Shown: positions 30,788-52,866 of the stretch, one piece after another | Layout: the number at the start of each line of letters is the position of its first letter | How positions within the stretch are numbered: the stretch's first letter is position 1 | Source: Thelocarpon superellum | Taxonomy: Eukaryota | Assembly (NCBI GenBank): GCA_026025795.1 | Contig: JAPEUG010000006.1 | Span: 62,001-114,866 of the forward strand | DNA length: 52,866 nt | Direction: 5' to 3' | Position numbers and translations under genes: made by a program | Notes under the pieces: model-generated | What the model was told of the DNA's origin: nothing | What the model saw: only the letters and a program-made list of their open reading frames with translations | The model's database searches: none

Positions 30788-32804
30788 GGAGTAGCTACGG
30801 TCAATTCTGTACAACCACCAATTCTGTACAGAATCGGGGTCAGGAGGCCTACAGATCAGATTGACAACACAATTGCAAAGTAGATACATTAGATAGCTAG
30901 GAGAGAAGGGTCTATAGACTGGTAACTCAATTCAAAGTCGTTTTGATCCAATTGGGCTACTTCTTCATCATCTGTAGCCTCTGATATCGCTTCTGTCCCT
31001 ATTGTCTGACTTGCTTGTTGGCTATTCAAGGCCTCTTCCTTTGCCACCTTGACCTCTAGCCAACACTTCTTGCACTTGTCCTTCACAATTGACACCTGTA
31101 GCTTGAGATCCTGTTATTGCTGGCATTGACCTTCCTGGTTCTGCCATTGTACAACCTCTTCCTCACATTCCAGCTCTTTCTGTCAAATGAGCTCCTGCAC
31201 TTCCTCAACACAGAGCAACCCTCCACACTGTAGAACAGTCCAGCAATGTGTGGAATGTTGCACCTGTTCCTTGATTGACTGGTAGAGGTTGTCCAGCTCT
31301 GATTCCATTAGTATTGCACATGACATTGACTGCTTAGTGCTCTGTACAAGCTTCAGCAACACCTCTGGAAGGTGAGGGATGTTGTCAACAGGTTCCACAG
31401 CCAGTAGCAAGGCCTCTGTGTGTTGTTTGATCTGCTGTAGTGTTGTAGGGGTCTGGAGTAGTAGGGTAGAAGGGCCATTGTCATTGTTGTTGTTGTCATT
31501 GATCAGAGGTGTAGCAGGTTGCAAGGCTTTGTTCAATTGCTGCAGTATAACATCTGGATCATATAGCACAATGCCTGTCTTCTGGAAGGCCAACTTCACA
31601 TTTGATTTAGTGAAAGCTTGCTGGCAAACATGTGGCAGGATTGACAGGAATTGCACCTTGTCAATAGCCTTGTTGCCACATTGCACAGCATTGTCAACAG
31701 CACAGGTGTAGTAGTGCTTGTAGGGCTGGAAGCAACTGACATCCAACAGCTGCAGTAGGTGGCTTGTATAGGGTGGTAGGCAAACCAGGATGATATCAAG
31801 GTCCTAGGCCTTGATCACAAAGTCTGGGGTGATGTGACTGCCATGGCCATCCATCAGTAGTAGTTGATATCAGCCATGGGCACTATCCTTTGTGAAGTGG
31901 TTGAATATCGATTTGAGCCATTTGATGGTGATGGTGTCTGTGGTCCAGCCCTTGGGTGATGTTGCTATTGTCCAGTTGCTTGGAAGGTTGGCCTTGTGCA
32001 AATACCATGTCGCAGGGTGTTGTTGGCCAGGCATGATGATTAGCAGAGGCAGAACAGAGCCATCAGATTGGATACACTCAACAGCTGTTATCCATGTACA
32101 GGTGCCAGGCTGTGTCACCAATGCCTGGCACTTCTTTGAGCTAGAATAGCAGACAACTCTCATATGTCTGGCAACACTACTAAGGAAGCCTGTCTCATTG
32201 ATGTTCCATATATTGTCCTCCACAACACCATACTCCTGTATGATGTCCTGGAATTGCTGAAACCACCTGTTGACATGGTTCCTGTTGGTACAGTTGGCGT
32301 GTATGCTATCCAGAGGTTGACTTGGTGTTGTTGTATACTCCAGATGACACTTGACAAAGCGATTGGCCCAATTGATGCCAACAGACAGTGTGGTGTTGTC
32401 TTCTGTATGATTCAACTTGGTGAGGAGCTTGTTGGTGTATCCACAGATGATATCCAGCTGTAGAGGAAAGCCGGCCCTGATCAATTGATCAATTGACACC
32501 TTGAGTGCTTCCTCCTGAGGTCTTGAGAGCTTCTGATTGTGCCTGCTGTTCAGAGCTCACAGTTGGTCACCATTGGCACATCCTAGGAGCTGGCAGTAAG
32601 GAGTGTGGTAATAGGCTGTGGCCTGGTGAAGGGATGCGAATTGACCTGTGTTATATGTGTCATAGGCCTCCTGGATGAGGCTCTCGGAGTCTTGAGCCAA
32701 TTGCTCCATTCTGTGTGGCATGGTGGTTGATCCTAGGTCACTGTGGGGGGGTTCACAATGCTGTACAGAATTGGTGGTTGTACAGAATTGACCGTAGCTA
32801 CTCC
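30788..32804 (-). mobile_element. pogo/Fot1-type Tc1-mariner DNA transposon, full length, inactivated
   Basis: Perfect terminal inverted repeats GGAGTAGCTACGGTCAATTCTGTACAACCACCAATTCTGTACAG, each containing two AATTCTGTACA direct repeats; flanked by TA at 30786-30787 and 32805-32806. Confidence 0.92.
30889..32721 (-). pseudogene. pogo/Fot1 DDE_1 transposase (one ~611-codon frame broken by transition-derived stops)
   Basis: VGINWANRFVK (HTH), IWNINETGF, GWTTDTITIKWL, LLLMDGHGSH, LQLLDVSCFQPYKHYY. The ORF fragments 31870-32499, 31183-31746 and 30889-31095 share one frame. Confidence 0.9.
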
Positions 32805-34265: not shown

Positions 34266-34456
34266 TGTGACACCGGGAGCTCCACAAGGATAGGATTGAT
34301 CACATGATAGCCACGTGATGGTCACATGATACAGCACATGACCTGGCACACTGTATATAAACCAAGTCCCGCTGCGAGCTAGCAGAGCCCCAGCGTTCAA
34401 CTCGAGTGACATGAGGAGGCAGGTCATAGGTCTATGAGCCCTAGGAGCCACAGAGT
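34266..34456 (+). repeat. Solo LTR of the Gypsy A family, left part (split by the Harbinger insertion)
   Basis: Aligns with 36806-37062 and 51320-51576 up to ..GGAGCCACAGAGT; the remainder resumes at 52074. Confidence 0.9.
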
Positions 34457-34717
34457 AGAGTGGTTTCGCCACAGGAAAGACAGAAATTCTAAAGAGTGGA
34501 AATGGGATAGGTGTGCTGATCATTGCCTATTCTGGTTGTGATCCCTGTCAACAGGGATCACAACTTCAGCAGAGTTCCAAAGTGCTTCAGATCTCTTCTA
34601 AAGACCTGTTATAGTTAGGGCAGTCCTATTGTAGTTAGCTGTTGCAATCAATTGTGTCAATTCAAATGTCAGACTCACCTGTGTGTCTCCATTGTTGCCT
34701 TGATATTGTGATATAGA

Positions 34718-35889
34718 TGAATAGTATAGCTCAGTTGCCTCCATTTCGATTTGATCCACCTGCTGTATTGTCAGCTGTATTGTTAGTAGTCTCTTGGAGT
34801 CCTAGTCCCACACCCCAGGCACAGTCCCAAGACTCCTTCCCACCTCCTCCACTCTATCCTCCATCATCAGTGTGGTCTAGAACCCAATCAGGAGACTTGC
34901 AAGGGTCTTAGGATGGGTTCCAGGTCCTAGTGTCATCATTTGATAGAGGCAGGGAGGAGATCAACTCACCTCTCACCCCCTGAGCCAGCCAATTCCCTCC
35001 CAACAACAACAATGATGACAACAATCCCACTCCTGAGCCAACACTACACCAGTGGCAGCAGCAGCAGCAGTGGCAGCAGCCACTTGAGTTCAGGATCAGC
35101 CCTGTGAGACATCAGCAACAGGTCAATCTCTTAGAAGATGAGGAACTCACCTTGATCCAGATCTGTGCAGAGAATAGGTTAGCATTTGTTAATAGGAAGA
35201 AGAGAGCCTTCTAGGATACTATTGCAAGGCAATTCACCACTGTGACAGGAAAGCAGTATAAGAACTGCGATAGGCATATAGCAATGTTGGTCTAGAAGAG
35301 AAGGCTGCAAATAGCAGTAGAAACAACAGGGACAGAGTAGACAAACAACAAGTAGACAATTGCAATCAATTGGTGGATTGAGTGCTTGGACCAGCTAAAA
35401 AGAGAAGAAGAAGAGAGAAGAGAAGAACAAGACAAGAGGAGCAGCTACATGGCAAGGGCAAACAAGGTGAGAGGTGACCTGTTGCTTGGTCAGAGTGCAC
35501 AGCAAGTGGCAGAACAAGCAAGGAGGATGGACAACTCACCTGATATTGATAATGGCAATGTTGAATTAACTGCCTTGTCACTGTTTGCCTCCTTGTCCAG
35601 CATATCTAGTGCATCAAATCACCAGACCTGTGCTCAGAAGCAGTGACAGGCAGATGATGTGATGGAGGTGGATCTGGTGGAGGACAAGCTTGGCACTGCT
35701 GTTGAGAAGTTAGTCAACTTCATGACAAGTCAACAGGGGAGTGAGCAGGCATGTACCAAGGCAATTGTGAAGGAAGTGGTCAGGGACAAGATTGGTCAGA
35801 TCCATGAGATGTTGGTAGAGGAGACAAGGGCACAGGCAGGCATGCTTTGCCAACAGCTTCAGGAGAGTCTAACATTGGGGCTGTGGTAG
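34718..35889 (+). pseudogene. Harbinger Myb/SANT-like DNA-binding protein remnant (start approximate)
   Basis: LEDEELTLIQICAEN..KKRAF*DTIARQFTTVTGKQYKNC..NWWIECLD followed by a coiled coil; position matches Harbinger ORF1. Confidence 0.6.
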
Positions 35890-36805
35890 ATGATGTTAGC
35901 AATCAGAAGCTAGAACAATCAGGAGGGAGGAAGGACATGAACCTAGCTGTAGATAGTCCTCAATTGATGGTAGCATCAATCCAAAGATCAACTCTGTCTG
36001 CTATAAGAATCAGTAACAGTTAGCTAGTAGAACTGCTATGAGGAAGTACACAGTGACTAGGCTGTTGTGTGACTACAGTGTAGTTGCAAACTGTGTTGAT
36101 CTCCATAGATTAGTGGTGTTTCCAAAGGCATGCTCAACACTGATGTGGTAGCTACTCATCACAGTGTTGAACACCATGCATTTGTCATTAGTAGTACTGC
36201 TCTTTAGGAAGGGGTTGAGGATGCTGTAGGTGTTGTGGTATGCCTTGTTGCTGTATATATACAGATCTTCACAATCTGTATAGACCTAGAGAGTAGTGGT
36301 TAGTAGGTGCTCATGGAGGGGACAGGGACTCACTCAGTGGAGCTCTTGCTGGACTCCACTGTCTAGAAACATCCACTAGTTGTTATTTGGAGCCTGATAA
36401 GGCCTGGCCAGTGATGTGACCAGGCTGTCAGGTGTTAGAATTGCTTGGTATTTGAAGCTGTGTCAATGCTTGTGTCCAGAGTAGTGATCCTGCTAGTTCT
36501 CTGACAGTCAACAGAACAGATTGAATGTCCTGTCAACAAAGCTGAAGATCTAGTTGCCACTGTAGCCAGAGCAGTGTCCAACAGCAGTGCTAAAGGAGTG
36601 TAGGAGGTTGTAGTTGTTGAGACAAGGGTGCTAATAGAGGAAGCGCTAGTATCAGGTGTAGAGGTAGGCAACAATGTTATTGTAGACACTTGAGAGGAAT
36701 GCAGACAAGTGTCTGAAGAGCCTACTCTGTTGCAGCAGACAATCTAGGTACACCAGGTGTGCTAGTAGTAGGCAGATGGCTAGGTCTGGTAGGGCAGAGT
36801 ATTGA

Positions 36806-37062
36806 TGTGAGGCTGGGAGCTCCACACCTCACCACAAGGATAGGAGTGATCATGTGATGGCCATGTGATAGTCACATGATACAGCATGTGACCTAGCATG
36901 CTGTATATAAACCAAGTCCTGCTGTGAGCTAGCAGAGCCCCAGTGTTCAACTCAAGTAACATGAGGAGGCTAGTCATAGGTCTATGAGCCCTAGGAGCCA
37001 CAGAGTCAACTCCATTGACTACATCTACTGTTTCTGCCTAGCTGTAGGCCTTTGTTGTCATA
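36806..37062 (+). repeat. Gypsy A 5' LTR
   Basis: TGTGA...GTCATA (terminal CA mutated to TA); TATATAA at ~36904; direct repeat of 51320-51576. Confidence 0.93.
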
Positions 37063-37119
37063 GTTTTGAATGCTCAGATACCCAGCAGGGTGCTAGCTAG
37101 AACCAGTCAGACAGGCACC

Positions 37120-38433
37120 ATGGTGGAGACTTGAGCAATGTCCTACCTAGGAGCCATGCAGGGGTCAAGCAGACCTGACACTGAGACCAGGATCAACAAC
37201 ATCAACACTGACACTGAGATCTTAGCAGATGGCTAACAAGACTATGAGATCCAGCAGGCCTCAACAAGCACAGAAGCCCCTACACCACCTACAGCCATGA
37301 TATCCTACCTACAACACAAGCAGACCCTCAAAGAACAGCTGCATGTCCTCAAGGAGGAAGCCAATATTCGAAAACTAGAGCAAGAGATTGCTAGGTGGCA
37401 AAGCTGCACAACAGACACCACACCTGGAGAAACTGCCAATGAGACCTCCAGAGAAACACAGCTTGACACTGCACCCAAGCAGACAGCCAGGAATGCTCCT
37501 CAACAACAACCCCATTCACCTGACTTGTCCACATCCTTAGGCACCACACAGAAGCAACACAGAGAGGAGAAGGACAGGGATGTGGGTAATCCACCCTACT
37601 ACAACAGTCACACCTACAACAAGTGGCAATACTGGGTCTACCATGTCAAACACCTTCTACAAACCAAGCCATACACCTATAAGACAGATGAGGACCAGCT
37701 TACCCTTGCAAGCAACTGGCTAGAACCTGGCATGGTCAACCAGTTTGTACACAAGCAAGCAGGGGCCACACCACTGACAACCTAGAAGGAAGTCAAAGAC
37801 TTCTTCCAACTTTTGATCAACCCTGGCAACACCCAAGCCAACAGTGCAGCACAGTCATACTACAGAGCAAAGCAGAAGCCAGGACAGGACCTATTTCGCT
37901 TTGTATCCTACCTGGAATCACTAGAGGACCTCATGGACCCCATTGACAACACAGCTTGTGTTGGAGTGCTACAGGCCAGCTTACTACCAGAGATACAACA
38001 AGAACTCGACACTAAGGACAAACACCCTACCAATCAAGAGAGCCTGATAGTAGAGGCATCCAAGGTTCAGCAACTCCTGAACCCTCAGGCTGCAAGCAGG
38101 GCCCTAGGGCTAGGCTTGGGACCCAAACAGGGCTGTGGATCAGCACCACAGCTACACAGAAGCAGTCAATCAATGTCATGGTCAGGCCAATCCCTACTGA
38201 ACCAGTCAACAGGAGGGAGCCATACATGGAACCACACATCCACCCTATCAACATCGAACACCTCATCCATGTCAACTAAGCCCCAGGACCATAGCAGCAG
38301 TTCAACCCATACAACATCGAAGGGGTTCAGTAGTGAATGCAACTAGTGCAGCTACAAGGGCCATAAGGAGAAAGACTGCTATGGCAAGAAGCAAGGGAAG
38401 CCAGCACACAACCCAAAAGCAGGGGCTCAGTAG
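37120..38433 (+). pseudogene. Gypsy A gag (CCHC zinc knuckle)
   Basis: ORF fragments 37297-37785 and 37813-38346 share a frame; CN*CSYKGHKEKDC knuckle at ~38338-38379. Confidence 0.85.
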
Positions 38434-41400
38434 ACATCATGTCAGCACTACTGAGTCACTATTCTAAGACTGACACAAGACAATTGGTCATCCTGATTGA
38501 GATCCTGCAAGACAACAGGACAGTCACAGCCACAGCGCTGATCAATTCCAGAGCAGAACAAAACTTTGTATCACATCTGCTAGCTAAGGAGCTGCAGCTA
38601 CATGACTGTGACAAGCCTGCCCCACAGGTAATGGTATTCAGAGGACATTGCATCCCTACATATAGGGTCAAGCAGTTGACCAGCCATGCCAGAGACAGCA
38701 AAGGGCAGGTCCTAGACTCAAAGGACTCCTTTGTGGCTACACCATTCAACCAGTACAAGATGGTTCTAGGTTACCTGTGGCTTGACAAGCACAACCCAGA
38801 CATCTGCTAGACAACAAAGACATGGACTCACAGGGGCAAGGTCCTGCAGCAGTGCAACAACATCACAATTGTGAAGGCCTGAGAGCTGGCCACTGCAGTG
38901 GAGCAGGAGCACATCAGCGTCCTCACAATCCACATGTCCTACAAGGACAACAGCCAACACAAGCACTACATCATGGTAGCTGCATCTGCCAGTCAATCTA
39001 TACCACCTGAATACTCTAACCTTAAGCAGGTCTTCTCTGAGAAGCTAGCAAACCAGCTACCACAACACAGGCCACATGACATAGCCATTGACCTCACAGA
39101 GGGAGAGCCACCATGGGGGCCCCTCTACAACCTATCAGCTACAGAGCTGAGTGTCCTCAAGGACTACATAGAAACCAACCTAGAAAAGGGGTTCATCCAG
39201 CATTCCAAGTCACTAGTAGGAGCCCCAGTCCTCTTTGTGCCTAAGCCAGGTGGGGGACTGTGACTCTACATGGACTACAGGGGTCTCAATAAGATCACCA
39301 AGAAGAACCAGCACCTACTGCCATTGATCAGCAAGTCACTAGATCAACTCTTGTAGGGCAAGGTGTTTACCAAGCTTGATGTACACACTGTGTACAACCT
39401 GATCTGCATCAAGGACAGGGATGAGTGGAAGACAGCCTTCTGAACAAGATATGGACACTTCGAATACCAGGTGATGCCATTTGGGCTTGTCAATGCCCCT
39501 GCTACATTCCAGAGCTATATCAATAGAGGACTAGCAGAATACCTAGACAATGTCTGCATAGTATACTTGGACAACATTGTTATATACAGCAAAGTCAAGG
39601 CCAAGCACACACAGCATGTGTGCAAGGTGCTCAAACACCTCCTACACCTCAGCCTATTTCTCAAGCTAGAAAAGTGCTAGTTCAATGTCAACAGAGTCCC
39701 CTTTGTGGGGTATGTCATCATGCCTCAGGGGGTCTATATGGACCCTAGCAAGGTGGAAGCTGTTGCAGAATGGCCAGCTCCTAAAACAACAAGGGATATC
39801 CAATCATTCATTGGATTTGCAAACTTCTACAGGTGCTTCATCAAGGGCTTCACAGAGCTTGCACAGCCACTCAATGCACTAGTGAAGACACTAAGCAAGA
39901 AGTCAAACACACCTGTGGTGTTGACACAGGAAGCTTGCCACTCCTTCAAACAACTACATGACACCTTCACCAAGGCACTAGTCTTAGGCCACTTTAATCC
40001 CTGCCTCCCCCTATGGGTCAAGACAGACACCTTGCAGATAGGCATCTCAGGAATCCTGTGCTAGCAGCACCAGGAAGACAAGAAGCTACACCACCAATAG
40101 CAACCCATTGCATTCTACTTGCACAAGCTCAGAGATGCTGAGTACAACTATGATACAGGCAACCTGGAGATGCTAGCAATTGTTGCAGCATTTGCACAGT
40201 GGAGACACTACCTCCAGGGTGCAGCATACCAGATCGAGGTAGTGACAGATCACAACAATCTCCACATGTTCACCTCAGCTAAGACACTGAGTGGACACCA
40301 CAAGAGGTAGTATAGCAACCTATCTGAATATGACTTCTAAATCATACATCAACTAGGGAGATTGAACCTAGCCAATACTCCATCAAGACATCCAGACTAC
40401 AAGCAAGCTGCTGCCCCTAAGCAGGGAACTCCCATGTGGTTTGTTAATACCATGGCTGGCCACAACCAACCCCATGCAAGGGGTGAACCAGGCAGAGCAG
40501 CAGCACTCACCCTGATGGTTAGCAGTGGCAGCCATGTGTGCATTACACCACAACAAACAGTGATCACAGCATCACACACCAAGACAGCTTACAGCAAAGC
40601 TACAAGCAATTTCTGCAAGGTCCTTGCAGAACTGCAGCAAGCAGACCCTGACATTGTACATATGACACAGAAGGGCTTCCCACAAGACAACACTGATATG
40701 TTGACACAAGGATGCAACAACCCTGCAGAGATGTGGAGCAAGGACACAGACAGCCTTGTGCTCCACAAGGGGCACCTGTATGTCCCTGCTCAGGGAGCAG
40801 GACACTTGGAGGTTATGTGAACCCACTATGACAACCCCTTAGCAGGGCACTTTGGTGTACACAGGACTACAGAGCTGGTCTAGCAAAAGTACAGCTGGCC
40901 TACTGTGGCCTAGGACATTGAGGAATATGTCCTTACCTGTGCCATGTGCAGATGAATGAAGCCAGCAAGGCACAAGCAGTATGGAGAGCTACAATCACTT
41001 CCTCCACCATTAGAACCATGGAAGGACCTAACCATGGATTTTGTCACCAACCTACCCCTGAGTGGTAGTAGTGGGAAGGCCTATGACTCTATCTTAGTCA
41101 TCATGGACCACTTCACCAAAATGGTATACTACATTGCAGTTTGCAAGACAATTGACATGCCTGAGCTGGCAGATGTCTTCATCAAGCAGGTTGTTAGCAG
41201 ATATGGGCTACCAAGCTCCATAGTCTCTGACAGAAGCATAGTGTTCACAGCAAGCTTCTGGTCTGTGCTGTGCTACTACACAAGGATCAAGCACTGCTTG
41301 AGCTCTGTGTTCTATCTACAAACAGATGGACAGATGGAATGACAGAACCAGACACTTGAGCAATACCTTTGCAGCTATGTCAACTGGCATCAAGATGATT

Positions 41401-42131
41401 AGGTCCAATGGCTACCCCTAGCCAAATTCTCCTACAACAACAGTTGCCATGCCTTGTTGGGAGTATCACTGTTCTATGTGATGTACAGCTACAACCCTGT
41501 GCTTGACCTGACTAGGGATCCACCCCCTTGTGAGGTCCCAGATGTCACACAGAGGGTTAGCCACCTACAGGAGCTATGAGAGGAACTTGTGCAGCAGCTC
41601 CAGGAAGCCTAGAAAACACAGGCTAGATACTATGATCACAAGACAAAGCAAATGACATACACAGTTGGACAGCAGGTGTGGCTATCAGTATGCAACATCT
41701 GCTCTACAAGACCAAGCAAGAAGCTTGACACAAAATACTATGGCCTATTCCACATATTGGAAGCAGTAGGCAGGCAGGCCTACTGATTGGACCTAGGGAG
41801 CAAGCTGGGCAAGATACACTCTGTGTTCCACATCTCCCTGTTAGAACCCCACAGGCAGAGAGACAACAGTGATGAGGAGCAACCAGGCCCCATCCAGATT
41901 AATAGCAAAGACAAATGGGAAATAGAGTCTATACTAGCAGAATGCAAGCAGTATAGGAAGCAGCTCTACCTCATATGATGGAAAGGCTACTTAGAGGCTC
42001 ACAACTCCTGGGTGCCTAAGGAAGACCTGCTACACTCCTGAGACCTACTCAACAAGTTCAAACAATGTCAACACAAGTGTCCTACAGCTCCTACAAGACA
42101 ATTATAGGCACAATGCTAGGCAGTTGATTAA
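38412..42131 (+). pseudogene. Gypsy A pol (PR, RT, RNase H, integrase, chromodomain)
   Basis: ALINSRAEQNF (protease), MPFGLVNAPATFQ, VYLDNIVIYS (YLDD), LEMLAIVAAFAQWRHYL, PWKDLTMDFVTNLP, IHSVFHISLL, WEIESIL..LYLI*WKGY..NSW. Confidence 0.92.
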
Positions 42132-42718
42132 GAATGGATTCAGTCCCTCTGCAGGGAAGGTGTAGCAACCTAGGAAGCTAGTGGCATGTGGGCTTAGCCC
42201 CTAGTGGCTGGGGGCCCAGGGCCCAACCATGCAGCAGGAGATACAAAGATCACCTTAATGGGAAAGGACCTGCAAGGTGTGACCAACAAGTAGCTAGTTG
42301 TTGGCTGGAGGACAACAGGAGGCCTTAGCTCTGTCAAGAGCCATGTGGGAAGCGCTGGATGCTGTTTGGCCATGTGGTTGAGGAGTTGCAGATCACAAGG
42401 CCTAGTAGCTGGCGCTTGGGGATGGCTCTGAGGTCATTGTCCCCCCTGAGGGACCTTGACTTGGGGTTGAAGTGCTAGACAATGGAGACAAGGGAGTGTC
42501 TTGGGCTGATCTGTGACCACAGCTGCGATGCCTAGCAGATCAAGAGCTGGGGTTTGTGCTGGGGTTGACTCTGCCAATTGTGAAACCACACACTCAAGGA
42601 GTGGCCTCACCCTCAAGTGGTTTGTCTAGAAGGTCTGGGTCCTCATCAGGACTGAATGGGTAGACTGCAGGGAATCGATTCTGCCACAATGTGAGCAACA
42701 CCCAGCAAGCAGCAGAGA

Positions 42719-42910
42719 TGTTATGTGTGAGGCTCTGTAGAGGGTCATGTGGTTGTGTGGGCTCAGGAGAATAGTCAGGTGGCCCCATGTGACCACCTGC
42801 TGCCTGGCTATTAACCCCACTTTCACTTAATTCCTTTTCCTTTCCTTAAGAATCAGTGTTGTTACTATGAGCGACCTCAGTTAATAGACAATTCAATCAA
42901 GGATGTTACA
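42719..42910 (+). repeat. Gypsy B 5' LTR
   Basis: Direct repeat of 50273-50464 with TG..CA ends. Confidence 0.93.
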
Positions 42911-42989
42911 GTCTGATTCTTCTCCTACAACTGACTCTATCACAAAGAACAACAAACACCCAAACTTCCCCAACATCCCACCAACCTTC

Positions 42990-44270
42990 ATGGATGTCCT
43001 TGGGATAGACAAGCTGACACCTGCCTGTTGAACTCGCTCCAAGCCAGCCAAACTTCCACCTATGGAGGAAGCTCACCAAGATGCCCCAGCCCCCCCCACC
43101 CTCAATGCAGAGGACCTTCAACAGTCTGGACAAGGCTCCTGCACAGTCAATGAGCCAGACAGCAGCCCTGCAAGCTCTTACTGTGACTCTCATCAATTGT
43201 CAAGCCACAGCTCACAAATGGAGGCACAACAACAGCAAATAGAGGCCCTCCAATTGGGCCAGAAGGAACTCCTCAAGGTTCTGAAGGGAATGAAGGCTCA
43301 ACTGGAGGTGTCAAACACTGCAAGACCACCTGTCGCTTCCCAGGCTGCCCGACCACCCACACTAGTGGAAGGCGAGGCTCTGGACAAGTTATGGGATCCA
43401 GCCACCCATGACAAGGCACTGCGACAATTGACAAGCTGACATACTATACAGACTTCAGTGTTGTCTGTGGTAGGGGGATCCTTCAAGGCCCCCAAACCCC
43501 CACTCTTTGATGGAAACACATGTCAACTCTGGTCATGGCTTGTGGAGTTTGACAAATACCTCAAACTGGTCAATGTGGGCAACCCTGAAGTCAAAGCCAC
43601 TATTGCTGTCCACTACACAGCAGGGGTGCTCAGGATGAGATTCACAGGTATGAAACAAGTGGATTCTGAGAATGTCATCTTCAAGGATTGGGAGATCTTG
43701 AAGGAATGGCTCTAGGCCAACTACAGTCTAGTGGACGCCCCTGGGGATGCAGCCAGAGCCATGGGCAAGTTGGTCATGGGTGCACAGGAGCCAGTTATGG
43801 ATTTCATCAATCGATTCAAGACAGTGTGAGCCAACCTCCAATGGAACAACACAGCTGTATGCAATGCTTTCTGTGATAGGCTTACTCAGCTGATACTTTG
43901 CAAAGTCCTAAGCATGAGAGCAGGGATGCCACAAACCTTTGAGGAGTGGAGAAGGACATCACAGCTTGTAGAGCAACACCTCAAGCTGTCACAGCACATC
44001 CTCCAGGAAGGCCACAGTAATGCACCAAAGCATGTGCACTAGGAGGAGGAACATGGCCCAAGGAAGAGAGTTTTTGGTCACCTAGACCCACACAAAGGAC
44101 CATCCATGTCCACAAACCCCTGACAGACCAATTTTCCCCAGCTGCATCCTTCTGACTGGAAATGGCAATGTGAGAACAATCACTGCATGAATTGCAGCAT
44201 GAGTGGCCATTGGGCCAAGAAGTGTTTCAAACCCTTCTGACTAGGGAGGCAAGCTCTGCCAAAAAACTAG
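42990..44270 (+). pseudogene. Gypsy B gag (CCHC zinc knuckle)
   Basis: KAPKPPLFDG..LWSWLVEFDKYL; CMNCSMSGHWAKKC; ends CCA AAA AAC TAG. Confidence 0.85.
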
Positions 44271-47200
44271 GCCACACAGTTGTAGGGGTGATGGGCTGCA
44301 GACTTTCAGACACAACCCTGTCTCAAGACAGTGCTACCCCATTGCTTCCCCTCAAGCTAGATGCCATTGCTTCATTACCCCCTTCAAAAGGGAGCTGTGA
44401 TCAATCCCCATCAATAACAGAGCCCATCATCATTGCCCTCGCTTCACCCTAGACACCGACATCTGTGGAATTGCTCCACATTGATATTTTTGCTCTCAAT
44501 CAAGGATCAACAGAGCCTCCATTCACCATCAACACTCTAGTCAACTGCAGGTTAGTAGTGAACAGTATCTCAACCTCACTTCTCCTTTGCTTCCTGTGCA
44601 AGCCCATCACAATAGACAAACCTCAACCTAGCATTTTCAATTGCCAGGGTCGTCAACTAGCGCCCAGCACAGATTATCTGTACTGGGTCGACATCTCCAC
44701 AGTCGACTCACCCAGCAGCAAACATCCATTCAGGGCCATAAACATGCACCACAACATGATCCTTGGTCTACCATGGATGTCAACTTGCAATCCCTGCATT
44801 GACTTCTGTACACAAACAGTAATACTCGACCCACCTGTGACGAAACCACCTCTGTTAGCAGATGGATATGCCCCACTCCTAGCCATGAGGCAGGGAACTG
44901 AAGTCACTACCACAACAACACACACTAGTCACAGGGTTCTGACAGAGTATGTGGACCTCCACAAAGTCTTTGACAGCGAACTGGCAAACTCTCTCCTACT
45001 GGTGAGAGGATACCTAGACCATGTGATAGTCCTCAAACCAGACCACAAACCACTGGTTGGCCCATGTTACAATCTCAGCCAGACAGAAATGGGGGTGCTC
45101 AGGGCATACATTGACAAGAATCTAGACAGGGGATTCATCCAACAATCCAAATCCCCCTATGCCTCACCTGTCATGTTCACCACCAAGAAGACTAGAGACC
45201 TACAGTTGTGTGTGGACTACCAGGGGTTGAATCAAATCACAGTGAAGGACAAATACCTGATTCCACTCATTTCGAACATCCTGGACTGTCTGAAGAGAGC
45301 ACCAATCTTCACAAAGCTGGACCTATGGGGGGCCTACAACCTCATTCAAATTCAGCCAGGCAATGAAGAGAAGACAGCCTTTCAGTGCCAATATGGCCTG
45401 TTTGAATACCTGGTCCTGCTGTTCAGGATGTGTAATGCACCTGCGACATTCTAACACTTCATTGACAGGAAGCTGCAGACTGTCATTGACAAGACCTGTA
45501 TTGTCTATCTCAATGATATTCTCATCTTTAGCAAGGACACAGCGCAACACACCAGAGACATTCACAAGATCCTATCCCTTCTCTTGCAGGCAAAGCTGTT
45601 TTGTAAGCTGGACAAGTGCACCTTCAGCACTAGCAAGGTTGAGTTCTTAGGCTATATGCTTGGTGGTAGACAAATAGCTATGGACCTGAGTCACATCCAG
45701 ACAATCACAAGCTGGCCCCAACCCACAAAGCTCAAGGACATCCAGGCCTTCCTAGGATTCACAAATTTCTATCAGTGGTTTATCCACAGATACAGTGAAA
45801 TCGCAGGAGGCATGACAAATCTCACAAGGAAGTCCACACCATTCCAATGGACACCTGAGGCCACAACAAGTTTCAAGAGCCTAAAGACAGCATTCACAAC
45901 AGCACCCTTCCTCAAGCACTTCTACCCTGAATCACCCTCTTTTGTAGAAACCAACACTAGTGTCTATGCCCTTGGAGGAGTCCTATTGCAAAAACATGAC
46001 AACAACAGACACCCTGTTGCATTCCATTCAAGAAAGTTCACAGACACCAAGACAAGATACCAAACATACAACCAGGAAATGATGGCAGTGGTGGATTGTT
46101 TCAAGGCATGGCAACAGTACCTCAAAGGGGCAAGTCAGAGGATCACAGTTCTGTCTGATCACACCAACCTCCAATATTTCCTCACTTTGAAGGTCCTGTC
46201 AAGGCAACAGGCTGGGTGGGCAGAATTCCTGTCAGTGTTTGACTTTGACATGAAACACCAGGCAGGGAGACGAAACCCTGCAGACAGCCTGTCCAGACAA
46301 CCAGATTACCAATCCCTGGACAAAGGCCAACCTAACACCTTCAAAGATATCCTCACTGGAGGCACAACTACAGTAAACACAACCATGTCTATGAACAACT
46401 AGGAGGACTCAACAACAGCGCCAGGAACAACAAACAATCACATTCTCACATAGACCATTCACCTGGCCTGCATGACAATGGACTGTTGCAGGGCCACCAC
46501 TGTCCAAGTCCTCACTGACAACTCAGGAGCTTCCACAGACACACACATGTCAAATGGGAAGCAGGCGACCACTGAGCTGCAAGCAGCTTATACAAAGGAC
46601 AACCAAGCCCTTCTAGCAAAGGACAACAAATTCACTATCTGTGACAGCCTTGTCTTCTACAAGGGTGACCACCTGTACATCCCAACCTGAGCAACACAAC
46701 AAAGGATCCTCAAGGAACTCCACAACTCTCTGACAGTGGGGCATCATGGCATCAAGAAGACCATTGCTAGAGTAGCACAATGGACATTCTGGCCTGGGAT
46801 GAACAAGGACATTGAAGATTATGTCAAGACCTGCAACATTTGCCAACAAATGAAACCCAACCAACACTCCCCTTACAGAGAACTGGCTCCTCTACCAGTC
46901 CCCAAAGGTCTGTGGATCAATATAGCAGCTGATTTTGTCACAGGACTACTGCTGTCAAACACAACTGCAACACCTGCAGAAAAGCTGTTTGATGCCATCC
47001 TTGTTGTCATAGATCGATACTCACAAATGGGTCACTTCATTCCCTGCTATGTCAACACAGACACAAAACAGCTGGCCTACCTGTTCATTCAAGAGGTTTT
47101 CCACAGCCATGGATCACCATCCTCCCTTACCACAGACCATGGATCTCTTTTCACATCCCACTTCTGGACATCCTTGTCAAAAGGACTGGGAATGACACAG

Positions 47201-47989
47201 AAGCTATCCACAGCTTTCCACCCCCAGACAGACAGAAGCACTGAGCAGCTCAACCAGACCCTGGAACAATACCTGCACAGCTATGTGAACTGGAGACAGG
47301 ACAATTGGGCAGACCTACTGCCACTAGCCAAGTTCGCATACAACAGCAGTCCAGGCAAAACCACAAGACAGTCACTGTTCTTCATTTGTACTAGGACAGA
47401 TCCAAAACTGCCCACTATAGTGCACATCTGCAGAAGTGCAACATTACCAGCAGTCCACAACTTTGCAACCAGAATGGGCGAACTATGCCAGATGATGATA
47501 CAAGACCTGAAGCACACCCAGAATGTGCAAGCAGAGAGGCACAACAAGCAACACACCACTGTTGAGTTCAACATTAGGGATAAAGTCCTCCTCAGAACAA
47601 CACACCTCCACACTGACAGACCCTCACAAAAACTCAAAGTGAAGAAGGTAGGGCTGTACACAGTTGTGGCACACTACAGTACACAAGCATACTGCCTAAA
47701 GGTCCCAAAATCGTTTAGAGCACACCCTGTCTTCCATGTCAGCTTGCTTGAGAAGTGGCATCTGAGCTTGCCTGGGCACATCCAAGAGCCCCCACCACTG
47801 ATCAGGGACATCAACAATGACAGACAGGACAGACAGGAGTACAAGATAGATGCCATCTTGAAGTCGAAGAGGGAAAGAGGACAACTAAAATACCTTGTCC
47901 ACTGGAAAGGTTACAGCAACCATGAAAACATGTGGCTACCTGTGAAAGACCTGGGCAATGCAACCAAGCTTGTTAACAAGTTTCACTAA
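44261..47989 (+). pseudogene. Gypsy B pol (PR, RT, RNase H, integrase, chromodomain)
   Basis: LCVDYQGLN, VYLNDILIFS, HPVAFHSRKF, GHHGIKKT..CNICQ, AFHPQTD, HPVFHVSLL, EYKIDAILKSK..KYLVHWKGYSNHENMWLP. Confidence 0.93.
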
Positions 47990-48442
47990 CAATTCCCCTC
48001 TGATCCACATCCTGAAGAGATATAGCTGTGGAGCAAAATCACTGTTAGGCAAAAAGGCTGTGAAGCAGAAAATCCCTATATATCTATAGCTGAAAGTTAA
48101 AAAGAGCTACTAAGCAAGAAAAATGGTGTGAATCCATGACACGAAGTCAATGTGAATGGCATGTGACAGAGTCACTGATTCCCAGTGGGGAAGATGGCCA
48201 CAGTGGCATCATGATCATTGAATGACACCCACAAGCCCAACCCACCCTCTCCCTAACTATCACTTTGCCCCCCCCCCCCTCCTCACCCTCACCTGATCAA
48301 AGTTCTTTCCACTCAACACTTTCCCACCACAATACCTCAACCTTCACAAACAAGCGCATGCAGCACTGGTCCTCAACAATGCCTGTAAAGAAGAGATGGG
48401 GTATCACCATCCTAGTCCCCCTAGATCCAAGCGCATACTGCA

Positions 48443-50194
48443 ATGTGCAAGATCATCGCTGCTGCACATCCGCAGACAAGAGCAGCAGATGTGAAAACAA
48501 CCAATAACATCAACAGACTCCCTTCAACATACAACAAGGAATGGGTGACACCACAGCAGTCATTGTCCTCATTCCAAACACCAGCTCTGGCACCTATGCC
48601 CACCCCTCCTTCATCCTCACAGCCTACTAGTACACCTGCGCAAGCCACCCATCACAACCCAGATGTGGACAACCTGGTGGGTCAAGGAAGCAACATCGCT
48701 TCCCTGTTCCTATCATCAATTGCCAGTTCAAACAACCTAAGCGTGGTATCTGAAAATGATGAGAGAAACAACACTCAGGATGACAAAATGGAAATAGACA
48801 TAGCCCTGCGAACATGCATGAGAAGCTGTCCACTGCTTAACAGCACCTACAGCACAAGCTCATCCAACCAAGACTGTGGGTGGACAACAATCCCACATCA
48901 TCCAAGAGACAGACCTCCATTTGCACCATTCCCTGCAGACCCTGACACATTGATGACAGACACCTGTTCTTCAAACCTCAGCCACCATGGCTCACACTGG
49001 ACAGCGTCATCAGAGAACTTGCCTCAGTCTGAAAATCACATGTTTGTGACAAAAACAACCACCACGACTTGTGGACAACCAAGGCTCCCTTCAGTGTCAG
49101 GGGACACAACTCAGTCAGAGCGCAGCAGCCAACCCTGCAAGGACCCGCAACCCACCCAGCAATGTATTCCACTACTGACAAACAACCCTCCAGATTGAGT
49201 TAATTGCCAGAACGATCACAGCAACACTGCGCTGACCTGTGACCCAGGCCCACCACTGCTGCTGGTAGCCTTCTCAACCCAGCAAACCCTGCCAACAGCA
49301 CCAAGGTCCTATACACCACAGCCCTGTTGGTGTGGTAGACTGGAACAACAAGGCACAGGTTTTGATGTCACTCATGAGTGGAACATCCATGGGTACTAGG
49401 AGAGATTTGATACAGATGAACAAGCAATCGATTTCATCAAGGCCATCATTTGCAAATGTGTATGGACAAGCACATACAACATTGAATGAGAGGAACTTGT
49501 GGATATCGCTCATCTCATCTACCAACACTGAATGATACATAGCTCCACAGACCACCACCACCCCACCACCTTCACCACAAGTCAGGTCCAGAAGATACTG
49601 AAGTTGATAAGTCAAGGAAGATGGAACCCTCAAATGAAACCCCCCCTTTGACAAGACCCTACCTTCAAATCAAAGACTGATCAATGCTTATATGGCCATC
49701 TCACAGAAGATTGTGACAAGCCAGTGGCCACAGCTAGGGACAGATGAAAACACAACTGTTTGATCACAAACCAGGCAGACTACTAGGAACAACCACCTGT
49801 CCTGGTGGAGTGCTGCAAAGGTCAACTGGTTTATGCGCAGTTCCAGGCTTTGGAAGGATTCGCCAACTAGCAACTTGTTGATGCAAAGAGTCACTTTGTG
49901 TCTAGCTGGATTGTACAACCCTTCCCTGATTAACAAAAATTTGCTGACATGGTGCAAACGCTTATGGGAATTGACAAAGAACTGCTCAAGCATACCTAGA
50001 CAACAAACAAGGCCTGGTTGGTTAACCACATGAGGTGGAACATCTACACCAGCCAATCAACAAACCCTGACCTCTGCAAAGCTCCAACTGGACCCTTGCA
50101 CTTCCTTGTCCATACCAGTCAAATGGATATAGTCTGATCCTTTTACACCACTTTCCTCGCAGTGGTTGACCAACAATCACAAGACACCAACTAG
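48443..50194 (+). pseudogene. Gypsy B extra sense ORF3 (~580 codons, unknown product; ends approximate)
   Basis: The frame of ORF 48443-49198 continues without frameshift to ~50194, interrupted only by TGA/TAG/TAA codons explicable as C-to-T or G-to-A transitions. Confidence 0.6.
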
Positions 50195-50272
50195 CCAACA
50201 CAAACAACCACTGATGATGGAGACAACAACACTAAGTTCTCGAGGACGAGAACACAAGGGAGGGGGGAATGG

Positions 50273-50464
50273 TGTTATGCGTGAGGCTCTGTGGAGGGTC
50301 ATGTGGTCATGTGGGCTCAGGAGGATAGTCAGGTGGCCCCATGTGACCACCTGCTGCCTGGCTATTAACCCCACTTTCACTTAATTCCTTTTCCTTTCCT
50401 TAAGAATCAGTGTTGTTACCACAAGCGACCTCAGTTAATAGACAATTCAATCGAGGATGTTACA
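50273..50464 (+). repeat. Gypsy B 3' LTR
   Basis: Direct repeat of 42719-42910, preceded by the PPT. Confidence 0.93.
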
Positions 50465-51319
50465 AGAGACAACACAGACGCCTACCAAGTAGCACAGCTG
50501 GTTCAGGATCTCCATCAGGAGGAAGTTCAAATGCTCAGTCACAGCAAGAAGAGTGCTGCTGTCACACTGTCCACACTTGTTGAATTCGACAGTAGAACAG
50601 AACTTTGAGATGTGGAGCAGCAGGCTAGACCTATAGGTCTCTAGCTGCGATTCTGCTGTGATGGTGTTAGTAGGAGGATGATGGAGTGAGTTCATGTACT
50701 GCTCTTGCAGCCAGAAGATGGTGTTCATGTGTCCTACAAACTTTGTGGAGATCTAGTTGACAATGACAAATCAGCACAGCTACACAGCAGAGCAATTGAT
50801 GTACTGAGAGACAGGGGTGCCCAGTGATTTGGCACCTATTGCACTTCCTATACAGATTAGGCTTATGGCACCTATGGCTGTGGTTGTGGCTGATCCACTT
50901 GATGCAGTGTTGACAGGTGCTCTGATCCAACACAGGAGGCAGGCTAGGCACAGCCACCTGCTCAGGGAACACAGCAGACATTGTGAGGTTTGGCAAAAGT
51001 GGAACAGAGGCAGAAGCAGATCAATGGAAGCAGAACAGGAGCAGAACAAACACAGGATATTCTTGAACAAAGAAGCTACAACAATTGCAGATTGAGATCC
51101 TGGTTGATGAAGAAGCTGCAGAAGAAGCAGAGTGTTAACAGACCCACAACAAATATCAACAATGTGCAAATTAGCAGCAATTCACCACAACATGACAACA
51201 ACATGTTGCCCTAGCCCTACAGCACTATTGACAACCACCCCACAGGGCCATCCAGTTCAATAGCAGCAGGTGAATAGCTGTGTGCGCTCCTGGAACAGAG
51301 TGCTAAGGAAGAGGGTAAT

Positions 51320-51576
51320 TGTGAGGCTGGGAGCTCCACACCTTGCCACAAGGATAGGAGTGATCATGTGATGGCCACATGATGGTCACATGATACAGCA
51401 CATGACCTAGCACACTGTATATAAACTGAGTCCTGCTGTGAGCTAGCAGAGCCCCAGTGTTCAACTTGAGTAACACAAGGAGGCTAGTCATAGGTCTATG
51501 AGCCCTAGGAGCCACAGAGTCAACTCCATTGACTATGTCTACTGTTTCTGCCTAGCTGTAGGCCTTCGTTGTCACA
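51320..51576 (+). repeat. Gypsy A 3' LTR
   Basis: TGTGA..GTCACA; direct repeat of 36806-37062, preceded by the PPT. Confidence 0.93.
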
Positions 51577-52073
51577 ATCGATTCCAGAAGTTGATTGCTT
51601 CAAGGTCGAATAGTAGTAGGAGGTGATGGATCTCTAGCTTTGTAAATCTATAGATCACATCATGTCAGTATCATGTTCAAGCAGGCAAGGAACCTACCAG
51701 AACTAGTGATGGCACACAGAGTCTAGTAGTGATTCTATGGAGAACTCAAAGTGCTTGTGAGGTTGTAGAGGATGTGTAGGGTGGAGCCAGTGCTGGAGCT
51801 CACATCTGTGATGTAAGTGGAAGGCTACCAGAGTGAGGAGAAGAGCAACAAGGTGGGAGTGATGAGAAGCCTCTATTGCTGCAAGATTGTGAGATCTCAG
51901 TGTTGGAGGTGAGGAAAAGCTGGATTAGAGCTCCAGAGCTCCCTCCTGATTCCATCATTCAATCCATATATTGCCTATTATAGACTAGTGGCTACACTAT
52001 TCCTAAATTCACCAAAAACCACTATTCCCAAATAGCTCTTCCAAACTTCAGTGACTGGTGGCGAAACCACTCT

Positions 52074-52132
52074 AGTCAACTCCATTGACTACATCTACTG
52101 TTTCCACCTAGCTGTAGGCCTTTGTTGTCACA
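52074..52132 (+). repeat. Solo LTR of the Gypsy A family, right part
   Basis: AGTCAACTCCATTGACTACATCTACTG..GTTGTCACA completes the LTR begun at 34266. Confidence 0.88.
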
Positions 52133-52237: not shown

Positions 52238-52866
52238 CTATAGGCACAATATGAGCAGTGGGTGTGTAAAGGTGAGTAAAGGTGAGCAGCAGGGGAGGTC
52301 GAAGGCGTATTGCGGGTGTGCAGAGCAGCGACAGATGACTAACCCTAGCAGGAAAGCAACAACATCTTCGTAGGCCAGACCAGTGTGACGGTGGACAATT
52401 CGAGAGGACCAATTGTCAGGCGAGGAAGGACTTGGTCGTACATGGAGGTCCCTTCCCTGAATTCCAAAAATTCGGACAGATTGGTAATCGAGGGGTGGGA
52501 GATGGAGATTGGAAGGGCTGACCAAGACACAAGGGGTTCGTCGGACTTAACGTTCTACGACGGTTGGGCCTTTTCCGGCCGTGCATGACTCGGACCAAGC
52601 GTCATGGACCGGCAGGCGGTCTAGAAAAAAGGAGGGCGGATGGACGAGATACGAAGCAACCCTTTTACTCGTACCACTTCTGCTATTATTGGGTCCACGG
52701 CTACTGGTAAGTTTTACCCACGAGCCTGGACGAGTCAATTTGGCGGAAGCAGCACATGAACGCGCCTCCTGGAAGCATAAGTGCCACCGCGACTTGAAAC
52801 CCTGGCGGGCCGCCCCCGAATCTGCACGTTGCGCTGCCTGCCTCTGCCCTATGCGGTCGGCTGTGT

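Follow-up and report, generated by a model that had tools for sequence, protein, structure and literature searches.

A 52,866-nucleotide (nt) stretch of the Thelocarpon superellum genome (assembly GCA_026025795.1, contig JAPEUG010000006.1, positions 62,001 to 114,866), the whole of which is called the window here, raises the question of whether a long terminal repeat (LTR) retrotransposon can carry an intron-bearing gene antisense to its own genes, and what such a gene would encode. A previous reading made from the letters alone (the sequence-only reading) placed a gene of this kind on the minus strand of a Ty3/gypsy retrotransposon, Gypsy A, which is interrupted by a second such element, Gypsy B, and likened the product to a Zn2Cys6 zinc-cluster protein. 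Our analysis points to a small three-exon gene that is carried antisense in the tail of Gypsy A, was probably captured from the host, and is now dead, a reading to which we assign a probability of about 0.55. The predicted structural core of the earlier proposal holds, strengthened by a second candidate intron, by a homologous T. superellum protein, KAI9835367.1 (P0001 below), and by evidence that the gene moved together with Gypsy A as a single unit. In all likelihood, the apparent zinc cluster is an artefact that CpG decay produced.

The tail of Gypsy A contains a predicted three-exon gene

The gag-pol region of Gypsy A lies on the plus strand (37297 to 42107; Pfam RVT_1, RT_RNaseH, rve, and SH3_Tf2-1). 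The intron-bearing gene described by the sequence-only reading indeed runs in the opposite direction, on the minus strand, between the end of pol (~42107) and the polypurine tract AAGGAAGAGGG (51305 to 51315), which lies 4 nt ahead of the 3′ LTR. Predicted exon 1 (50981 to 50805, 59 codons) opens with an ATG in the context CACAATG and is followed by a 52-nt GT…AG intron 1 (50804 to 50753) with the donor GTACAT, a branch-like CTGAT motif, and the acceptor TAG; the sequence bears out the earlier description of both. This intron joins in phase 0 to ATC TCC ACA AAG at 50752, the start of a helical module encoded by exon 2 (50752 to 50486, 89 codons), an in-phase join that had also been proposed and whose acceptor is now backed by P0001. 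The in-frame TAG of the acceptor closes the exon 2 frame.

The helical exon had previously been taken to continue across the insertion site of Gypsy B. The frame is open there once Gypsy B and one AGAGA copy of its target duplication are removed; however, the claim that these 18 codons are coding did not stand, because they are absent from P0001, which skips those 54 nt. The skipped stretch, measured from GT to AG without Gypsy B and one target-duplication copy (50485 to 50470 plus 42718 to 42681), is best read as a second intron with Gypsy B seated inside it. Its 5′ part (50470 to 50485) carries the donor GTAGGC, and its 38-nt 3′ part (42681 to 42718) contains a branch-like GCTCAC and ends in GGCAG. 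Host introns in the window, deduced from frame junctions, measure 47 and ~52 nt, so the candidate introns of 52 and 54 nt are of local size. Exon 3 (42680 to 42597, 28 codons) ends in a TGA (42596 to 42594) that may be a decayed CGA and is aligned with Arg 245 of P0001. The predicted gene thus totals 59 + 89 + 28 = 176 codons and spans 50981 to 42594.

Pyrimidine-rich stretches are common ahead of fungal start codons, and one lies ahead of this ATG (50982 to 51300, minus strand; 71% C+T in the 99 nt preceding the ATG), where it is a candidate antisense promoter region. An open frame says little by itself: the stop rate in Gypsy A pol predicts about 3 stops per 176 codons, and the antisense gene has no internal stop. 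The case for splicing comes from P0001, itself a predicted gene model, which skips intron 2 and matches from the acceptor of intron 1.

A single relative matches exons 2 and 3

A phmmer search with exon 2 returned one protein, P0001, among 1,835,955,588 representative proteins (E = 3e-32). P0001 is the hypothetical protein M1838_005320 (partial; 246 residues) of a T. superellum metagenome-assembled genome; it is encoded on a 6905-bp contig and its cluster has one member. In tblastn, residues 128 to 216 of P0001 aligned with 50752 to 50486 (65/89 identical) and residues 217 to 244 with 42680 to 42597 (21/28 identical). The match starts at the first codon after the intron 1 acceptor, which, together with the in-frame TAG before that codon, supports the exon boundary at 50753/50752. 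One CpG decay in the window copy explains 19 of the 31 mismatches overall and 16 of the 24 in exon 2; by codon reading, six further mismatches are other C-to-T or G-to-A changes. Residues 128 to 244 are 73 to 75% identical to exons 2 and 3, rising to ~90 to 95% after decay is discounted, which indicates that the shared exons parted recently.

The first exons of the two genes are unrelated. Residues 11 to 75 of P0001 match the end of Amidoligase_2 (PF12224; E = 1.3e-4, 22.4 bits at a cut-off of 22), and this amidoligase piece, which belongs to the N-terminal 127 residues, had no counterpart in the window by tblastn or decay-aware alignment. Residues 128 to 246 recovered P0001 itself only, among 172 candidates of 135 to 431 residues. 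A metagenome scan with P0001 yielded 380 pattern matches, none of which was confirmed, and a degenerate DNA pattern drawn from a conserved exon 2 stretch had no metagenome match. Modeled alone by AlphaFold, P0001 shows helices at residues 131 to 150, 161 to 191, and 196 to 217 with a mean predicted local distance difference test score (pLDDT) of 41.2, too poor for a fold search; an Atlas model of the protein resembled only generic helical bundles (template-modeling scores of 0.45 to 0.59).

Exon 1 is probably real

As a control for exon 1, the 567 nt that precede the acceptor were shuffled 3000 times with dinucleotides preserved, and we counted the shuffles in which an ATG-started in-phase exon of 40 codons or more came with a donor-like site, a branch motif, and an intron of 42 to 120 nt. 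A comparable exon and intron arose in 14/3000 shuffles, and one with at least 59 codons in 8/3000. Among the 27 GT sites located 40 to 400 nt upstream of the acceptor, only 50804 gives more than 19 ATG-started in-phase codons. Codon composition was likewise specific to the frame. The G+C fraction at third codon positions (GC3) of exon 1 is 0.66 in frame and the corresponding fraction of A (A3) is 0.05 (3/59 codons end in A), compared to 0.47 to 0.48 and 0.31 to 0.33, respectively, in the other frames; exons 2 and 3 have a GC3 of 0.59 and an A3 of 0.16 in frame, while the off-frame values of exon 2 are 0.34 to 0.43 and 0.33. No homologue of exon 1 was detected among representative proteins of 105 to 2000 residues (13 candidates) or of 32 to 104 residues, and no Pfam family matched it at E ≤ 1. 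Taken with the shuffle control, the codon bias suggests that exon 1 is probably real.

Gypsy A was inserted as one unit with its candidate antisense introns

The two LTRs of Gypsy A (36806 to 37062 and 51320 to 51576; plus strand, 257 bp each, TG…CA) are 93% identical. Within 36806 to 37060 they differ at 18 positions, 16 of which make up CA/TG doubles at 8 sites; each of these sites held a CpG when the element inserted, and that CpG decayed on opposite strands in the two copies. With nearly all of their differences at former CpG sites, the LTRs were near-identical sisters at that time. The flanking 5-mers, ATTGA (36801 to 36805) on the left and ATCGA (51577 to 51581) on the right, form a single 5-bp target duplication in which one CpG has decayed. 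Together with the sister relation of the LTRs, this duplication shows that the whole unit, tail included, retrotransposed in one event. The element measures 14,771 bp (36806 to 51576), or 7,020 bp without Gypsy B and one copy of the Gypsy B target duplication.

Introns that lie antisense to the genomic RNA of a retroelement are not spliced from that RNA. In the mechanism that we propose, the tail of Gypsy A would carry a complete small antisense gene with a pyrimidine-rich leader, an ATG exon, two introns, and a stop, and the introns, being antisense to the genomic RNA, would have escaped removal and been copied when Gypsy A retrotransposed. The sequence-only reading had held that an antisense intron can survive reverse transcription, and the sister LTRs and target duplication show a unit copied with its introns.

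Repeats in the window have lost almost all of their CpG sites

The ratio of observed to expected CpG per kilobase is 0.88 to 1.19 in the host genes (kilobases 1 to 31) and 0.00 to 0.34, mostly ≤0.20, in the transposon kilobases 31 to 33 and 34 to 52, where TpG and CpA are raised to ~1.3 to 2.0. A nonrepeat island between transposons, at kilobase 33 to 34, has a ratio of 0.87. This distribution is indicative of methylation-driven decay that targets repeats with precision. By this reading, Gypsy A had a normal CpG content while active and has lost almost all of its CpG since insertion. Classical repeat-induced point mutation (RIP) was considered as the main mutational process and rejected, as the LTR differences are CA/TG pairs at shared sites, i.e., CpG decay. 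A mild RIP-like signature was observed in Gypsy A alone (TpA excess, with TpA/ApT of 0.9 to 1.24, and 11 TAG stops). At the right edge of the transposon-rich region, the CpG ratio switches sharply from 0.12 at 52000 to 0.94 at 52400.

The pol region of Gypsy A (38526 to 42107) contains 22 in-frame stops in 1195 codons and zero frameshifts; tblastn with the Gypsy B pol gave three matches on it, all in one frame. Stops without frameshift suggest that base substitution accounts for nearly all of the decay in this genome.

The cysteines of the gene are most likely decayed arginines

The sequence-only reading had reported six cysteines in exon 1 with a spacer of 12 residues between the first CxxC pair and the next cysteine. 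Six cysteines are present; the observed pattern is C-x2-C-x11-C-x8-C-x2-C-x6-C. The Zn2Cys6 (Gal4-type, PF00172) consensus is C-x2-C-x6-C-x5-12-C-x2-C-x6-8-C. Exon 1 resembles it in its six cysteines, its two CxxC pairs, and the spacing of the second half, and differs from it in the first spacer (11 residues, not 6), in the lack of a hidden Markov model match, and in that its cysteines are probably decayed arginine codons.

Exon 2 shows what CpG decay does to such a sequence. Residues 128 to 246 of P0001 contain no Cys and 10 Arg, and at these 10 Arg positions the window reads Cys at four, His, Trp, Gln, Tyr, and a TGA stop at one each, and a surviving CGA at one. All four exon 2 cysteines are, by this alignment, decayed arginines. 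In exon 1, the six Cys codons are all TGY, the six His codons are all CAY, and the three Arg codons are all AGG, alongside one Trp and four Gln. Because a CGY codon is equally likely to decay to TGY or to CAY, the 6:6 split is as expected of a former Arg-rich stretch. Moreover, AGR makes up 24 of 180 Arg codons (13%) in host genes, so three AGG codons in exon 1 imply that many CGN Arg codons were lost. Were all TGY and CAY codons once CGY, 15 of residues 22 to 59 would have been Arg, or 16 with the Trp. These data suggest that the zinc-binding-like cysteines of exon 1 are most likely mutated arginines and that its Cys/His-rich second half was probably an Arg-rich stretch.

Searches for a metal-binding domain, in which the exons were searched and folded singly, gave no support to the Zn2Cys6-like domain of the earlier reading. 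Neither Zn_clus nor any other Pfam family matched exon 1 or the 109-residue unspliced open reading frame (ORF) at E ≤ 1. A fold comparison of the kind that had been suggested as a check returned zero Foldseek matches in PDB for the AlphaFold model of exon 1 alone (pLDDT 64.7), and a PDB sequence search with exon 1 found nothing below E 1.5. In the Atlas, no feature of exon 1 scored above 0.83, every one falling short of the lead level, and the Zn_clus cluster came only at rank 12 (score 0.76).

Read back through the decay, the product would have begun with a strongly basic stretch, continued through three predicted helices, and ended in an acidic tail rich in proline. We infer from this build a small nuclear or nucleic acid-binding regulator and not a Zn2Cys6 protein. 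The present copy is dead: methylation-type CpG decay has mutated its Arg codons to Cys, His, Trp, Gln, and stop, and intron 2 has grown by the 7.75 kb of Gypsy B.

Codon usage points to a host origin

None of the 10 Arg codons of the module was AGR. Six host ORFs use AGR for the 24 of 180 Arg codons mentioned above, while Gypsy A pol has 35 AGR in 1193 codons. Similarly, A3 is 0.05 to 0.16 in the antisense gene, 0.11 to 0.19 in the host ORFs, and 0.26 to 0.27 in pol. By these measures, the Arg codons and third-position bias of the antisense gene are host-like and not transposon-like. Host-like codon usage, together with the position of the module behind an amidoligase domain in P0001, suggests that the gene was probably taken from host genes. 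The likeliest course is that Gypsy A took up host gene exons and uses a first exon of its own. Alternatively, the P0001 gene model may join a host exon to the exons of a transposon, an option kept alive by the length of the P0001 contig (6905 bp), which is near that of Gypsy A without Gypsy B (7020 bp).

Weighing the alternatives

Whether the gene belongs to Gypsy A at all may be asked, as the element sits in a complex transposon nest and its target duplication is not apparent at first sight. A rearrangement could have trapped host DNA, with a truncated Gypsy A on one side of it and an unrelated LTR on the other. That is barely credible, given LTRs that were near-identical at insertion and differ almost only at former CpG sites, flanks that agree once one CpG decay is allowed, a polypurine tract adjoining the 3′ LTR, and a CpG loss in the segment equal to that of the element, when the nonrepeat island at 33 to 34 kb between transposons keeps its CpG. 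Another reading grants that exons 2 and 3 derive from a gene, as dead cargo consisting of a 3′ fragment from an amidoligase-type host gene, and attributes exon 1 and intron 1 to a chance arrangement. In its favor, homology ends exactly at the acceptor, exon 1 lacks a relative in either length class searched, and open frames are weak evidence in DNA this decayed. A chance origin is nevertheless very unlikely in view of the 14/3000 shuffles, the strong frame-specific third-position bias of exon 1, in which so few codons end in A, and an ATG in a good start context behind a pyrimidine-rich leader. That exon 1 encodes a true Cys6 zinc-cluster-like metal-binding domain we consider improbable, and the chance that its full Cys6 pattern is ancestral is hardly better. 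The exon does hold two CxxC pairs and two more cysteines within 35 residues, its C-x8-C-x2-C-x6-C half fits Zn2Cys6 spacing, TGY codons are unaltered by CpG decay so that real cysteines would persist, and the AlphaFold model sets each CxxC in a helix, at a mean pLDDT of only 64.7. Against this stand the 11-residue first spacer, the failed Pfam, Foldseek, and PDB searches and the low Atlas rank, the fate of the exon 2 cysteines (4/4 decayed Arg), the Cys:His ratio expected of CGY decay, and the lost CGN codons implied by three surviving AGG.

The most substantial competitor, possible though on balance unlikely, is that the gene is a long-standing, family-wide accessory gene of a chromovirus lineage, with its own promoter, acting on the cycle of the element or on its silencing; on that view, P0001 would represent either a fused gene model or transposon exons exapted by the host. 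The gene appears complete from leader and ATG through two introns to the stop, unlike a random fragment, and it was mobilized together with Gypsy A. Antisense ORFs recur at the same position in other elements, including the fungal Boty elements, as described in a review (PMC7264820). Gypsy B, too, has a 2.3-kb tail with antisense ORFs, and the near-equal lengths of the P0001 contig and Gypsy A are suggestive only. On the other side are the host-like Arg codon choice and third-position bias, the amidoligase domain ahead of the module in P0001, and the failure to find further relatives in 1.84 billion representatives or two metagenome scans. In addition, the tails of Gypsy A and Gypsy B showed no similarity below E 0.02 in tblastx or blastn, and thus the antisense gene is not common to the two elements.

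Capture from the host remains our preferred reading, and several points weigh against it. It is drawn from one Gypsy A copy and from one relative, whose own gene could be located in a transposon or be a fused model. Exon 1 is without any homology support, P0001 has a different N terminus, and the shuffle criteria were picked after the case had been seen. TGY and CAY codons are immune to CpG decay, and a true Cys/His-rich exon 1 is therefore possible. Decay-aware alignment of the amidoligase piece scored 63, compared to 49.9 ± 7.5 for shuffles, whose maximum was 81. An antisense, intron-bearing capture needs a DNA-level route or read-through plus recombination, and it would be unusual, sense orientation being usual for transduced genes as they are presented in PMC7264820.

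Gypsy A lies within a nest of transposons

The last 22 kb of the window form a nest of transposons, in which repeat searches and BLAST identified two LTR pairs. By Pfam, both Gypsy A and Gypsy B are Ty3/gypsy elements, each with RVT_1, RT_RNaseH, rve, and SH3_Tf2-1, and both show the chromovirus features of TG…CA LTR ends, a 5-bp target duplication, and the order reverse transcriptase, RNase H, integrase. The Chromo profile was matched in Gypsy B, which also matches Integrase_H2C2; Gypsy A has only the start of a chromodomain-like stretch after SH3_Tf2-1. Gypsy B (7746 bp, 42719 to 50464, plus strand) is nested in the candidate intron 2 of the antisense gene and is bounded by 192-bp LTRs (42719 to 42910 and 50273 to 50464; 183/192 identical) and the target duplication AGAGA (42714 to 42718 and 50465 to 50469). 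Its 2.3-kb tail after the chromodomain (47990 to 50272) may hold another extra gene: it contains a Ser/Thr/Pro-rich sense ORF of 251 residues (48443 to 49198) and two antisense ORFs (50056 to 49688 and 49654 to 49274), none with a Pfam match. When 64 stop-to-stop ORFs of at least 45 residues from both tails and the flanking transposon were compared with Pfam, one match at E ≤ 0.01 was obtained, a sub-threshold Peptidase_S46 match that was dismissed as noise.

Gypsy A was itself inserted into a ~2.8-kb element (34457 to 36805 plus 51582 to 52073) whose 16-bp terminal inverted repeats (AGAGTGGTTTCGCCAC) are perfect, whose target duplication is apparently the 3-bp AGT, and whose ORFs of at least 45 residues lack a Pfam match; this element is probably a nonautonomous DNA transposon. 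It splits an older LTR of the Gypsy A family, of which 34282 to 34456 and 52074 to 52132 are complementary pieces covering LTR positions 27 to 201 and 199 to 255 (~90 to 96% identical). The Gypsy A family has thus inserted here at least two times, and the nest is four levels deep. Elsewhere in the window, the family is represented by solo-LTR remnants only. Outside these elements, on the minus strand at 31183 to 32556, lie two ORFs with matches to the DDE_1 transposase profile (pogo/Tc1-like), CpG-stripped as well.

Discussion

Antisense extra genes are known in LTR retrotransposons and are without an assigned function. Extra ORFs that run antisense and lie between pol and the 3′ LTR have been reported for maize Grande (gene23), rice RIRE2, Silene Retand, and Phaseolus PvRetro13, and a fungal case is brtn of Boty in Botrytis and Sclerotinia (PMC7264820); antisense ORFs of the Tat lineage are treated in PMC4408406. 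Boty is a chromodomain-bearing Gypsy element (PMC7264820; PMC4227169). In the account given by PMC7264820, functions of these ORFs are unassigned, and opinions on where they came from are divided between transduction and other routes. The predicted gene in Gypsy A resembles them in position, antisense orientation, lack of a known protein family, and a presumed promoter of its own. It differs from brtn, which we liken to it by description only, and from the other antisense ORFs in having two spliceosomal-type introns; the word "intron" is absent from the main text of PMC7264820. By title or abstract, no intron-bearing antisense gene in an LTR retrotransposon was found in the literature searched, which is not proof that there is none. 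Presence across copies has been shown for the Grande, RIRE2, Retand, PvRetro13, and Boty families, whereas the gene in the window is known from one copy.

HBZ of human T-cell leukemia virus type 1 (HTLV-1) is a spliced antisense retroviral accessory gene whose first exon lies in the 3′ LTR and whose product is a basic leucine zipper protein of a vertebrate retrovirus. Like HBZ, the gene in the window runs antisense at the 3′ end of its retroelement, would have introns invisible to the genomic RNA, and would encode a small regulator with basic regions; it differs in lacking homology to HBZ, in having its exons in the internal region, and in being predicted from sequence. Antisense transcription in HTLV is among the subjects cited in PMC7264820.

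Capture of genes by retroelements has been described for maize Bs1 and for sorghum LTR elements (PMC7264820) and for Drosophila TART-A, which captured nxf2 (PMC7785250). The Gypsy A gene shares with these a host-like sequence inside a retroelement, with host-like codons and a relative in a gene of nontransposon type. As described in PMC7264820, captured sequences are usually sense and intronless; the gene in the window is antisense, has two candidate introns, and is seemingly complete. P0001 for its part differs from the window copy in its N-terminal amidoligase end, in having kept its Arg codons, and in having no Cys in the module.

A further proposition is that a fungal chromovirus lineage encodes, in all of its active copies, a spliced antisense regulator with an Arg-rich N terminus, a three-helix module, and an acidic tail. 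We regard this as doubtful; if true, the regulator would act on the RNA of the element or on its silencing, in a layout that parallels those of Rev, Rex, and HBZ, and, among fungal LTR retrotransposons, it would be the first accessory gene described that is both antisense and intron-bearing.

Where a genome methylates its repeats, Cys, His, and Trp take the place of Arg through CpG decay, which can create convincing false zinc-finger patterns; Cys-rich motifs in such transposons should therefore not be taken at face value. The Gypsy A gene would also be a natural instance of the orientation rule used in engineered retrotransposition reporters. Its retained introns, its host-like codons, and its one close relative in a host-type gene would together catch such an antisense gene near its origin.

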